Translations under genes and position numbers: made by a program
Shown: piece after piece, positions 30,301 through 39,300 of the stretch
Layout: each line of letters starts with the position of its first letter
How positions within the stretch are numbered: position 1 is the stretch's first letter
Notes under the pieces: model-generated
Told to the model about the DNA's origin: nothing
What the model saw: the letters and a program-made list of their open reading frames with translations, nothing else
Database searches by the model: none
Source of the DNA: Tubiluchus corallicola
Taxonomy: Eukaryota; Animalia; Priapulida
Length of the DNA: 64,000 nucleotides
Assembly (NCBI GenBank): GCA_030141605.1
Contig: JAQGDQ010002380.1
Location: 1-64,000, forward strand
Reading direction: 5' to 3'

Positions 30301-33300
30301 AAGAGGAAGGAGGTATTTATAAATACAATTAACATCGTGTAGCAGACTAATAGCGAAGAGGTAGAAGAAATTTTAATCAATGCCTACTTTGTCTATTGCT
30401 GACCACGGCCTACTTTCGGGCCGTCCTTTCAATAGATTCAGTGTTTTGTGAAATGTTATGTTTTAAAATCGTGTGGATAATATCAGCAGAAATAATAATT
30501 AAGTAAAATTTATGTAGTTTTGATAACTGGGTTTTTAAATTTGGCCTCAGACTAAAAAAGTTCACATTAGTAAATCTATCTGTCCAATCCTATTTAAGCA
30601 GTATAGTAATAAAACTGTTAATTATTAAGATTAATTAAGTCATAAGCTACTAGTAAGATGTAATAATTTCACGCCTATCAGCTTATATATTTCTGTGCTC
30701 GAATTTAATCTGCTAAAAATTTTCCGCCTTGAAAAGTAGAGTGTTGTCACCGGGTGGTATTTTAAACTGCATATGCTAAACAGTTATTTCTGTTGTTAGA
30801 CCAGTCTATTAAGTTAGTTTAATCGTGAAGTTTTGAAAGGTCGGGTTACTTGTGAGCAAAACGTTTGCAGAAAGAGTTATTTTATAAAATAAGGGGAAAT
30901 GATATTCTGTTTTCGCAATAGTTGTATACATTTTGTTTACACGATACACGATGAGATGCTTAAAGTGTTTTTTGTGAACCTTTTTTTGGTATTTGCTGCT
31001 GTTTTAAATAGATTCTAAAGAAAGTCAAGATCTCCGAGGAAGTAACTATAATATAGATTATACACTAGATTATATGCTGACTCAATTTATAAAAAAAATC
31101 ATTTGTGTTATTAACAAGATTAAACGAACTTTAACAAGCATGCGTACTTTAGAACTTTTAAATGGGATAATTCAACAGGGCGCTGTCACACCATTTGAAT
31201 ACCCGAGACGGTTAAGTGCTGTAGTTAATGCAACATTAGCTGAAATTCAAATATTTGTTCAAGGAAAACTCTTGCATTGCAGAAAAAGATGCCGGTTTGA
31301 AATTCCGACATAAAAGACGTAGAATATAAAGCATTTTGTGTTTGTGCTTAAAGCGATTACTGCTTCGTTTTGCACAGAAGGATTTTCACTTTTCGTAAAT
31401 TAAACGTGCGTTACTATGAAACTGAAGATACATATGCAAAAGCCATGATTTTTCGGATTTTTCGGATACACAAAGTTTTAATTTGTTTATTTTTTTTAAA
31501 TTCAACTTCAATTCGTAATTTTATTTGGCGTGCGGTGTCGTCTAGATGTCAAGCAGTTGATTGCTGTTCTTTCCGATAGGTGGCAGCAAGAGCTGTAATT
31601 TCTTCCACTCCACGTACACAGGCGCGTAGCCACGTACAATACATGTTGCTTTCAGAAAAGCTCCATTGTAGACCCTTCTGCAAAGTCGTAACCGATTTGA
31701 GAAAAAAAAACACATTAAACGGCCAAGGCATTTGTCGAAAAATAACTAATTAACAACTCACGTTGGATTACGTTATATTTTTATTGCCATATTAGCTTCA
31801 GATAATTCTGAAATTGTGATTCTTTTTTTCGCATAATAACAGCTTTGGAAAAACCAGCCAACGCCTAGAAAACCGACACTTTTCCATTAAGATTGAATAA
31901 TTTTAATTTGTGTAATTTTCCTTCCACCCTTTTTGCCATTTTCTTAATTTACTTCTGGTCCGTGATCAGAAACATTGCTTCTTTAGAAGACAACTTAGAC
32001 AAGCCTTTAATAATACGGTTGAAATTATTTAGCGTAGTAAATTTACTGCAGAGTAAAACAGAGCAATTAGTCTTTGTACACAAATAAATTCGTCTGCAAT
32101 ATGTTAGAAAAAAATTATTGCAGTTATTGCTGCCGTAAATGGGTTAGAAAATATTAATTTCGATGAACAATATTAAACTCTCCGACATTTATTACTTGAC
32201 CACAAACACCGAGCTGCTTCATATATTCCAGCTATTGCTAGGGCAGACCCATTATTACTGGCTTTTAGGCACATAATTGCCTTAGTTTTGACTCCGACGT
32301 TCAAATTAAGTTTTGCTCAGTGGTGTTATTAAGGAAAGGTTACATTCAGTATATGTTAATGTTTTCAGTGTCTGTGCAAAAGTTTTATATTTCAGGGAAT
32401 CGAGACTAGCGGTCCAGAGAAAGCAGTTTTTCTGCCATAAATTTGTAATATTTTAGAGTTACATTATAAATATATTTGGCGCCTTCGGCTTAAGATGTCG
32501 CGGATAAAATTTGGGAGCTTGGGATGTCACGTGACTGTTGTAATTTCACCCATAGTAAGCTCATTCCATTACCATCATTGGCTGTCGTAAGTAGGATAGA
32601 TGTTACACCTCTGGCCGATTTCCCGGGGGGGGGGTGGGGATTTCCCCGGGGGGGTGGGGAAAAACACCCCTAAAAAAGTGCGAAAATCCGGGAAAACCCC
32701 TAAAAAAGTGTGAAAACCCGTGTGAAAGTGCGCACGTGACCGAAATCGACGAAAAAGCGCGAAAAACAAAGAAAAACGAAGAAAAGGCGTGTGAAACGAG
32801 GTAAAAATTTTCCATTTTTTCCCTCCCGCACGGCTTCATTTGGATCGAATGACCTTGAACTCTAGGTCACGTGACCAAAGTTCATTGACCCCTGGCCCCT
32901 GGATGGCTTCTTTTTTTGACACCCCATTTTAAACCGCGCGAAACCGCGCGAAAGTGTATGAAAGCGCGTGAAAGCGTGTGAAAGCGCATGAAAGCGTGTG
33001 AAAGTGTGTGAAAGTGTGTGAAACGAGGTAAAAAGCGCCTCAAACGAAGAAAAAGGGAGAAGTGGAGTTCCCGCCGAGGACTAATTAGTGCTAATTGGCG
33101 CTAATTGGCGCTAATTGGGGAGCCCCTGCCACCCCTCCGCCGCATGCAAACGTCCGTCCCGGGGGTCGGGGACACCCCCCCTGCAACCCACCCCTCCGTC
33201 GCGTGGAATCGTCCACTGCAGGCAATGAGGGAAATCTTTTTCCCGCCACTCGCGCAGTGCCGGCCCTTTTCCGCGACCACTTCTCTCTCTCTCGGGTGCC

Positions 33301-36300: not shown

Positions 36301-39300
36301 CGAATTCGTTTTTAACAACAATAACGTTTGTCTGTATCACATCGACGACGACGACGACAATCCATGTACTCGCTCGTCGTCATTAGTGTAGTTTTACTGT
36401 AATTTGCATAATTTGTGTAATTTGCGAAAAAAACGTAAAATGTAGAACTATCACGTCACCATAATAATAATAATAATCTAGTTTTAGCACGTATGTATTT
36501 TGCATAAAAAAATGTAAAAAAAATTTTTTGTAATCCATCAATAAAAAAGATTTGTGAAAATGCATTTATCGAACTTTGGCGTTTGAAATAAATCTCCACA
36601 CACACACACACACACACACATCTAAACCCGCGAGAGAAGTGGTCGCGGAAAAGGGAGGGCACCCGAGAGAGAGAAGTGGTCGCGGAAAAGGGCCGGCACT
36701 GCGCGAGTGGGGGGGGGGAAGATTTCCCTCATTGCCTGCAATGGACGATTCCACGTGACGGAGGGGTGGGTTGCAGGGGGGGTGTCCCCGACCCCCGGGA
36801 CGGACGTTTGCACGCGGCGGAGGGGTGGCAGGGGCTCGCCAATTAGCGCCAATTAGCACTAATTAGTCCTCGGCGGGAACTCCACTTCTCCCTTTTTCTT
36901 CGTTTGAGGCGCTTTTTACCTCGTTTCACACACTTTCACACGCTTTCGCGCACTTTCACACACTTTCACGCGCTTTCACACACTTTCACATGCTTTCGCG
37001 CGGTTTTGCGCGGTTTAAAATGGGGTGTCAAAAAAAGAAGCCATCCAGGGGTCAATGAACTTTGGTCACGTGACCTAGAGTTCAAGGTCATTCGATCCAA
37101 ATGAAGCCATGCGGGAGGGAAAAACTGCAAAATTTTTACCTCGTTTCACACGCCTTTTCTTCGTTTTTCTTTGTTTTTCGCGCTTTTTCGTCGATTTCGG
37201 TCACGTGCGCACTTTCACACGGGTTTTCACACTTTTTTAGGGGTTTTCGCGGATTTTCGCACTTTTTTAGGGGTGTTTTTCCCCACCCCCCCGGGCAGCC
37301 AAAGGGGGGGTGGGGAAATCGGCCAGAGGCAAAACATCTATACTACTGAGGCCGAAATACCTGGGAAAGTTAAAGTTGTCCAAAAGTCCTGTAAGACCTT
37401 CACGACCTGGTAGAACCAGTACTTGACAATAATTATTGAAATTATCTCTTTTACTGCATTTGTCACAGACTGGCAATGTTTAAAGCATGTGACGCAAATT
37501 GTGGCCTTCAACTATAGGTGACAGTAGGAAATTGTAATAAAACCCATCGACCTGTTTTTGTGACTTGATTATAGCTTTTTAATATAAGGCTTAGTTCTAA
37601 AAATCCTAACGTTGATTGGGATAATATGTACAAAACATCCAGGTTACAGAATTCTTGAGATTCGAACACCAAACTATCACTGTCCGTTTGTTTTGGATTT
37701 TTTTTTGTAAAAAATAAACCAAAACAGGTACACCAGGGGAAAGTAATTTTTGTTATTATAATGGTTATTCTCGCGGTGATTTCCAAATAGTTGTTTTCTT
37801 TTTATAGTTTGAGAAATCTGGTAGTCGAAAAGAAGAATTAGTACTGGAAGATTTTCTTGCCAGTTTAAAAGAGACTGAGTTTATGGATGCACATTTTGCG
37901 AAGTACAAGGTATAGGCTGTGCTTTCTTTAAATATCAAATAATTCATTGTTTAGTATAAGTGACCCAGTCAACATTTTCTTCTTTTTTCTCTTGCTCTTT
38001 CTCCTTATTATCACCATCACCATCGCCATCACCATCACCACCATCACCACCACCACCACCAACATCATCACGACCATCATCACCACCACCACCACCACCA
38101 CCACCACCACCATTATTGTTAACATCATGATTATCCGTTGCTGTGGTCATCACATCATCATCATCATTATCGTCGTCGTTGTCGTCGTCGTCGTCATCAT
38201 CAACCATCATCATCATCATCACCACCATCACCATCATCATCGTCGTCGTCGTCGTTGTCGTCGTCGTCATCATCATCAACCATCATCGTCATCATCACCA
38301 CCATCACCATCATCATCATCATTATCGTCGTCGTCGTCGTCATCATCATCATCAACCATCATCGTCATCATCACCACCATCACCATCATCATCATCGCCA
38401 TACGCTTAACCGTCATCACTGTCATTATTTTTATCATCAGTATTTAACCAGCCTAATTTGATAATTGTGAAGGAGAAAATGTTTAATTAGTTGAATTAAA
38501 GCAGTGGTTCCCAAAGTAGGGGTAAATTACCCCCCCCCCCCGGGTAATATGGTTTTGGGGGGGGGGGTAACGGGTACCCATCTGAAAACTTCGCTCGGAA
38601 TGCATTTTACGTAGTTTTCTTCTTGAAGAGACTGCCTCCGGCAGGAAACACTGTGTCATGGGGTCCATCATTCGCACGTTCTCACGATCTCTGGTGCGAT
38701 CCTGGAGAGAAGTCAAAGTTCACGATTGTTTCTTTGGTTTCGAGTTGGAGAAGCAGTACTAGGTGGGGGGGTAATGGACACGACCGGGTTTCCCTATTTG
38801 GGTAACGGTCCGAGAAAAATTTGGGAACCACTGACTTAAAGTGACTTAGTTCAGTCAGAACAAGAATAAGAATAAGAATGAGGATAGGAACAAGAAAATG
38901 CGTTATGCCAATTTTTTACATTTCAGAGCCTCCGATACACTGACTTCTTGGCAGAATTTCCCCAAAGTGACGTCAAAAATTTGCTAAAGGGTGATCCAAA
39001 GAGGCACCAAGCCGTGTGGGATTTATTCAAGACTGAATGTGTTTTTCTTTATGATCATTTACTGGTTCTAAAACAGGTATGTAGCTAAGCAGGGTATCCA
39101 GGTTGCTTGACTTGCATTTATACAGTCAATGTATAGTATTGTTTCTAACATATTCACTTTTAAAGTAAAATAAATATCAGCTGTGACAATTGTTTTGATT
39201 GCAGAATATTTTATAGATTGCTGATTTAAAAAATATTTTTCGAGTAAGTAAGTAACAAAAAGAAAGTACTGTGACATGATAACTAGCCCATTTATTTTTC

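Follow-up and report, generated by a model that had tools for sequence, protein, structure and literature searches.

The 64,000 nt of Tubiluchus corallicola DNA analysed here (the window; positions 1–64,000 of contig JAQGDQ010002380.1, assembly GCA_030141605.1) contain a palindrome of about 4.76 kb, in which two inverted arms (2227 and 2198 nt) enclose a spacer of 333 nt. An earlier note on this DNA had described a giant palindrome with AGTAG ends, a CpG-rich composition unlike that of the host, and a set of outward-running open reading frames (ORFs) derived from a Polinton-like element. The palindrome is indeed present in the assembly, as judged both by blastn (95.2% identity over 2238 columns, gaps counted) and by a column-by-column alignment of the arms (45 substitutions per 2175 aligned columns, or 97.9% identity, and 12 gaps). 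The innermost 340 nt of the two arms are identical. The foreign composition was likewise confirmed: the palindrome has a G+C content of 0.49 and a CpG observed/expected ratio of 1.28, compared with 0.35 and 0.86 for the remainder of the window. The features referred to below are as follows (TBP, TATA-binding protein).

32590–34816: left arm, the terminal part of one family copy, continuing natively into the spacer (arm alignment and contigs)
32590–32595, plus strand: left terminus, AGTAGG, which departs from the (AGT)2 motif at one base
32590–33580, mirrored at 36392–37347: terminal region without coding sequence, containing G/C runs, a (GT)n tract and short tandem repeats
33581–34168, minus strand: TBP-like frame of the left arm (Pfam TBP, E 1.9e-21)
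34105–34617, minus strand: DEDD/DnaQ-fold gene of the left arm
34610–34840, minus strand: basic frame of 76 codons with no ATG, preceded by a pyrimidine tract and AG and likely a spliced exon; ARKSAP motif at 34745–34762
34817–35149: spacer, native inward continuation of the left arm (contig record 11 of run X3)
34892–35059, minus strand: short acidic, proline-rich ORF within the spacer; at 34993 a candidate donor site whose phase fits an acceptor ending at 34841
35150–37347: right arm, the same end inverted, likely from another family copy (arm alignment; alleles with multi-copy depth in run X4)
35150–35158, plus strand: microhomology of 9 nt, the reverse complement of 34808–34816, which also fits the inward sequence of the parent
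35150–35356, plus strand: 5'-truncated copy of the ARKSAP frame, acceptor missing; ARKSAP motif at 35204–35221
35349–35861, plus strand: DEDD/DnaQ-fold gene of the right arm ('MAEL'-type of adintoviruses), assigned by predicted fold and relatives
35798–36391, plus strand: TBP-like frame of the right arm (Pfam TBP, E 3.2e-21), overlapping the tail of the DEDD-like ORF; no ATG ahead of the domain
36540–36592, plus strand: two AATAAA signals 3' of the TBP-like stop
37342–37347, minus strand: right terminus, AGTAGT, identical to the (AGT)2 Maverick end motif

The 4.76 kb contain no further long ORFs, and hence, as the earlier note had stated, no gene for pPolB, rve integrase, ATPase or capsid; a protease gene is absent too. 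What is present here is thus a fragment and not an element in itself. The sequence from which it derives is abundant, being present in four of the six runs listed, from two studies. Single contigs of the family in run X4 were 10,483–14,214 deep, and contigs of the flanks 152–162 deep; the parent family is about 55–95 fold deeper than the flanks according to the baseline used, contig depth being a rough guide. Run X5, despite the same species label, nearly lacks the element (0.00 of the family words), and copy number therefore differs strongly between samples.

Contigs of runs X1, X3 and X4 track the spacer to nt 35158 and then enter sequence outside the window. Record 11 of X3 (depth 4505), for example, covers 35121–35158 before running into sequence absent from the window, while contigs whose match begins at nt 35150 bring along, as unaligned letters, the sequence context that the window shows from 34817 on. 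Since contigs leave the window after nt 35158, the parent continues inward from this point, and 35150–35158 is a microhomology shared with 34808–34816. The left arm and spacer together thus make up the final 2.57 kb of a family member in its native form, and the right arm is the same end in inverted orientation. The junction between them is not a family feature. None of the four junction contigs of X3 (all four were listed) bridges it, and in X4, for which 8 of 19 were listed, the depth at 35161–35167 (13007.2) is accounted for by three contigs, each beginning at nt 35150, whose depths add up to 13007.1, leaving no room for a bridging contig. Further copies of the junction, which the earlier note had proposed to look for, were accordingly not seen in these two samples, in which an amplified junction form is excluded, though a single copy may be present. 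The depth pattern of X3 was left unused because the kind of run is not known, and depth in the outer non-coding regions was too noisy for placing the true boundary of the terminal inverted repeat (TIR) of the parent.

Genes of the arms and their parent family

One frame of the arms is an ORF of 170 aa, previously called exonuclease-like. It has 644 relatives at E ≤0.001, the best of which (P0002) is 62% identical, while a word-based protein search with the same ORF returned none among 52 candidates. Its structure model (pLDDT 92.4) has a predicted DnaQ/DEDD fold, resembling ISG20 (VIA Z 13.2, rmsd 3.0, 144 aligned) and Drosophila MAEL (VIA Z 10.0, rmsd 4.1, 146 aligned). The model and a fold search both bear out the exonuclease-like fold, but family residues are replaced: T9 sits where 45 of 52 relatives carry D or E, N24 where 46 of 52 carry E, and Cys is missing from two columns where 50 and 45 of the 52 relatives have it. 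As conserved acidic residues and both conserved cysteines are missing, the nuclease is likely inactive. Drosophila-associated adintovirus 2 (E 1e-10) is among the best viral fold matches, as are ichnovirus proteins. Close fold matches of the DEDD-like family were found in the banchine ichnoviruses GfV and AsIV (E 9e-11 to 5e-7).

An alignment of this family (10 sequences, out of 150 relatives listed) was used to scan IMG/VR, which gave 294 candidate stretches, among them four viral contigs (L001–L004) carrying the DEDD family. All four carry a double jelly-roll (DJR) capsid gene and an A32 ATPase, all three that were tested carry rve, and each of the four encodes the DEDD protein downstream of, and in the same orientation as, the capsid. 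The DEDD protein of the window matched all four (tblastn, E 7e-12 to 8e-8). By this comparison the parent family carries a Polinton-linked accessory gene in what appears to be its usual terminal position. A gene labelled 'MAEL' was mapped between hexon and inverted terminal repeat (ITR) in adintoviruses, in the order Penton, Hexon, MAEL, ITR (PMC8502044, text of Fig. S2), and from position and fold the DEDD gene would be the gene so labelled. The arms of the palindrome most likely represent an alpha-type adintovirus (Polinton), namely its end on the capsid side. The Polinton origin claimed earlier therefore gains support from the terminal motif, from the tie of the DEDD/'MAEL' gene to Polintons in four of four loci, and from a high-copy parent that continues inward. 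No DNA relative was found by blastn of the element against 244 stored viral loci, searches with terminal motifs of 15 and 17 nt yielded nothing beyond chance matches, and scans of viral contigs with single proteins and with DNA gave no match.

The claim of a TBP-like ORF was upheld in both arms. Pfam PF00352 gives one match per arm, in two stretches that correspond to the two-repeat saddle, and residues 7–168 align with a solved TBP across both repeats (E 3.4e-9). In TBP four Phe intercalate and two Asn are central; relative to 4wzs_D, the frame keeps three of these four Phe and one of the two Asn, as read from the alignment. A structure model, built on an alignment of two sequences, reached a pLDDT of 31.8. 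The sole relative among 216 candidates was P0001 (59% identical), and a metagenome search with the TBP alignment found none among 295 candidates. P0001 and the best DEDD relative, P0002, each lie on a contig of 1855 nt, which is probably one and the same contig with the gene order seen here. As no ATG precedes the TBP domain, translation of the frame would depend on splicing, on a frameshift or on a start codon other than ATG. An overprinted frame of 147 codons 5' of TBP is free of stops beyond chance (P 0.0015 with the element's codon usage), but was rejected as a gene because all five arm differences alter its residues, while four of the five are silent in the DEDD frame. Two contigs of run X5 (947 and 2447 nt) have TBP-gene-like patches at window positions 33980–34159 and 35945–35985, as from a divergent TBP-bearing relative.

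The third frame had been described as H3-tail-like. It does contain the six-residue motif ARKSAP, but no histone homology was found in PDB, Pfam or Atlas (Atlas recognition 1505, below threshold). When the frame was shuffled, ARKSAP appeared in 0 of 200,000 cases and ARKS in 0.1%; the motif was chosen after being seen, and no homologue of the frame was found. A splice from nt 34993 to nt 34841 would join the acidic ORF of the spacer to this ARKSAP exon. Compared with the most frequent allele of the family, the spacer has a short indel at 35113–35119, 5' of the ATG of the acidic ORF. The right arm begins inside the ARKSAP exon and hence has no acceptor; as stated earlier, the inner junction falls in mid-ORF, cutting its copy at the 5' end. 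With both upstream sequence and acceptor lost from the right arm, the proposed double dose of host-transcription modulators is doubtful. The ORFs had also been called intact, which goes too far: the H3-like frame lacks an ATG, the TBP frame has none ahead of its domain, and one H3-like copy is truncated. The arms differ by no stop and no frameshift. The motif in SARS-CoV-2 ORF8 has been named an H3 mimic (10.1101/2021.11.10.468057), an interpretation that is disputed (PMC10833455). The present frame shares with such viral ARKS mimics the same six residues, here in a basic, probably disordered stretch; it differs in that there is only a motif match, with no homologue by which conservation could be judged.

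The likeness to alpha adintoviruses and mael-associated Polintons lies in the (AGT)2-type end and an outward-pointing DEDD-fold gene near the terminus (PMC8502044; 10.1101/2025.02.07.637071). Unlike these, the locus has no core genes and no target-site duplication (TSD), its DEDD-like protein is without the acidic residues and both cysteines of the family, and a TBP-like frame follows the DEDD gene, where the readable text of Fig. S2 (PMC8502044) has no TBP label. A TBP homologue in a Polinton-related element is shared with the MELD viruses that carry a TBP gene (PMC8502044, legend of Fig. 5, non-animal datasets); the present gene differs in lying in an animal genome, in a high-copy family, with a MAEL-like neighbour and no ATG of its own. 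In the literature searched, which did not include most subscription papers or RepBase, a TBP gene in an animal Polinton was not found, the figure legends of PMC8502044 being the sole relevant match. Polintons with a MAEL gene, long TIRs that hold genes and copies in a degraded state are already known; mael-associated Polintons, TIRs of about 2 kb that carry genes (Pieris) and mobile copies lacking polB have all been reported (10.1101/2025.02.07.637071).

The parent end would be a single spliced, co-terminal unit downstream of the capsid gene, comprising the acidic ORF, the ARKSAP exon, the inactive DEDD/MAEL-like protein and a divergent TBP, and its likely job would be the tuning of host transcription and chromatin. 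Tentatively, it may be suggested that an animal Polinton/adintovirus lineage encodes a divergent TBP, spliced or frameshifted from a terminal cassette that would also supply an ARKSAP peptide resembling H3K27 and an inactive MAEL-like nuclease, and that these might draw host RNA polymerase II towards viral promoters and weaken silencing. Such a cassette, if real, is not described for animal Polintons in the literature searched. To our knowledge, little is known of how Polintons are transcribed in animal nuclei, and an open TBP homologue, conserved at 59% identity in a relative and lying beside a MAEL-like gene, offers a direct handle on this. The gene content of the parent weighs more in this respect than the palindrome itself.

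Termini and host flanks

Mavericks are marked by TIRs that begin with (AG)3 or (AGT)2 and by a TSD of 6 bp (PMC8097293). Both ends of the palindrome start with AGTAG, as claimed; the terminal repeat is thus of the Maverick type, with one mismatch at the left end, and the first 20 bases of the two termini differ at 4 positions. A TSD is absent: no exact repeat of 4–8 nt, and none of 6–8 nt with one mismatch, was found within 3 nt of the ends. Contigs of the left flank cease to match at nt 32590 (in X4 at a depth of 119 with 27 extra letters, in X5 with 74 extra letters), and the right-flank contig ceases at nt 37348 (X4, depth 162, 44 extra letters). Because flank contigs break off at both positions, both ends are polymorphic sites. 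A join of 32589 to 37348 is not among the 15 of 19 joints listed. The search for an empty allele, proposed in the earlier note, therefore gave no clean flank-to-flank join; the flank contigs enter sequence other than the opposite flank, and at least some tens of host bases are gone or replaced.

On the left lie plus-strand exons of a neuron-navigator-type gene with a CH domain (6237–6354, 18195–18267, 25859–26531 and 27333–27490; NAV2 CH, E 3e-13), and past nt 27490 no further navigator exon was recognised in the window. These exons mark the host as an animal with intron-rich genes. Plus-strand exons are also present on the right (37808–37909, 38927–39076, 39743–39838, 46103–46180, 47939–48054 and 48916–49004); these we take to belong to a PLEKHG7-type DH-PH RhoGEF, a label that neither Pfam nor a homologue search, each with 0 matches for this gene, confirms. 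The location within a host intron, as proposed earlier, was not borne out, as the exons on either side may come from different genes. Should the right exons be native to the left gene, the product would be an unusual protein with a navigator-type CH domain and a RhoGEF; if they are not, the element sits at a breakpoint between two genes. The part of PMC5499878 consulted gave no clear evidence for or against a CH-PLEKHG7 fusion, and PMC11071296 and 10.1101/697771 contributed nothing on whether the two exon sets form one gene.

Origin of the palindrome

The differences between the arms are informative as to how they arose. Substitutions are rarer in coding (12 per 1236 columns) than in non-coding DNA (33 per 939 columns, with 11 gaps), a difference with Fisher p 5e-5, or 0.027 leaving out 14 that lie in a tandem-repeat tract. 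Silent changes make up 6 of the 11 single-frame changes, against 22–29% expected. Three of the four right-arm alleles with data in the listed rows (35714, 35902 and 36454, but not 35792) have depths of 1,123 to 34,065 in X4; being multi-copy, these alleles are older than the locus. Coding constraint and segregating alleles together fit divergence in replicating lineages before fusion. The arms differ like two separate family members, not like one folded-back molecule.

The palindrome probably consists of the same end taken from two members of a high-copy family, likely of Polintons, fused head-to-head by what was likely a microhomology-guided deletion. Two elements would have been inserted on one chromosome with these ends facing outward, and repair or template switching at the 9-nt microhomology would then have removed both bodies and the intervening host DNA, the product probably being a private, non-replicating scar. 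Several points weigh against this. Two nearby insertions in opposite orientation are a coincidence. The silent excess is modest (P 0.03–0.12; 2 of 6 for TBP alone). The identity of the inner 340 nt, both arms having the non-majority allele at nt 34590, fits one source molecule or later conversion. The inward sequence of the parent is covered for about 30 letters, so that pPolB, integrase and capsid lie outside view. The junction is shown by no read or contig, its presence in a chromosome being presumed, and for run X2 the listing covered 8 of 99 contigs, too few to judge the junction. A window-like flank haplotype of sample S1 has a depth of 88x at 32351–32468 and no contig at 32518–32550; since this haplotype itself vanishes near the element, contigs evidently drop rare links.

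The unbridged junction in X3 and X4 is also what would be expected if two real insertions from separate loci had been joined at the microhomology in vitro or in silico, as a chimera of the library or assembly. The missing TSD, the arms of different variants, and the possibility that the left navigator-type CH exons and the presumed DH-PH RhoGEF exons on the right are two genes are consistent with this. A 9-nt overlap, however, is unusual for an assembler join, a single-molecule fold-back read would yield identical arms where 45 sites differ, and both exon sets are on the plus strand, ordered as a single gene or two genes in tandem could be; a chimera is therefore considered unlikely. Copy-back and snap-back defective viral genomes have two inverted copies of one end and a microhomology junction, and in this they are similar to the palindrome, which differs from them in that its arms are non-identical and look like two variants, its junction form is unamplified and its integration is without a TSD. 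The earlier note favoured such a genome, mobilisable in trans; on this model it would be thrown off during protein-primed replication and integrated as a unit by the parent integrase. The precise termini, the identical inner 340 nt and an end-plus-inverted-end geometry with a microhomology junction, of the kind expected from template switching, would all suit this proposal, and mobile Polintons lacking polB have been reported (10.1101/2025.02.07.637071). The missing TSD, the lack of a clean empty allele, a junction unamplified in X3 and X4, the differing termini and the family-segregating alleles of the arms speak against it, and it would require both a switch from one variant to another and subsequent damage at the target site. 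A satellite genome of this type is unlikely.

A local fold-back duplication with loss of the body and adjacent host DNA, after which conversion from other family copies diverged the arms, would need a single insertion. It would explain why there is no TSD, why the inner 340 nt are identical and why both arms share the allele at nt 34590. It is unlikely that a fold-back would stop exactly at the terminus and then join new host DNA, and conversion would have had to reach the terminus and much of one arm; this origin is considered very unlikely. Gene-containing TIRs of about 2 kb do occur in Polintons of Pieris (10.1101/2025.02.07.637071), and a parent with natural, gene-bearing TIRs of 2.2 kb would make the locus a plain internal-deletion derivative. 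All listed loose ends before 35150/35151 match the left-arm context, however, with no second inward sequence, and there is no TSD, which makes a natural long TIR the least credible of the origins considered. The Polintons of Pieris napi and Euchloe belemia resemble the palindrome in having inverted ends of about 2 kb with each gene present twice (10.1101/2025.02.07.637071), but there the repeats flank a full, spreading element, whereas here they enclose 333 nt and the family shows no such boundary.

A head-to-head fusion of two family copies makes the palindrome a probable rearrangement scar and not a new kind of replicon. It shows by what route Polintons of high copy number can remove host DNA, with long hairpins left behind inside genes or between them. 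A host transcript across the locus, if there is one, would fold into a hairpin of 2.2 kb.

Other features of the window

A second inverted repeat is found at 1–2138 and 5310–7540. Its arms are of about 2.1 kb, 96–97% identical and of host-like composition, the left one running out of the window. The right arm carries an insertion near 6102–6182 and the CH exon at 6237–6354, which is antisense in the left arm. This repeat may have arisen as an inverted duplication in the host, or else be another indication that the assembly is prone to fold-back. Two related short elements, at 38502–38833 and 41055–41513, have CAGTGGTT ends and near-perfect flanking repeats of 8 bp, reach a depth of about 120,000 in X4, and are presumably hAT-MITE-like. 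A GH18 chitinase-like exon occurs at 59645–59836 (weak Pfam match, E 0.08), and tandemly repeated units of about 72 and 55 nt form arrays at 54107–54747 and 62977–63815, respectively.

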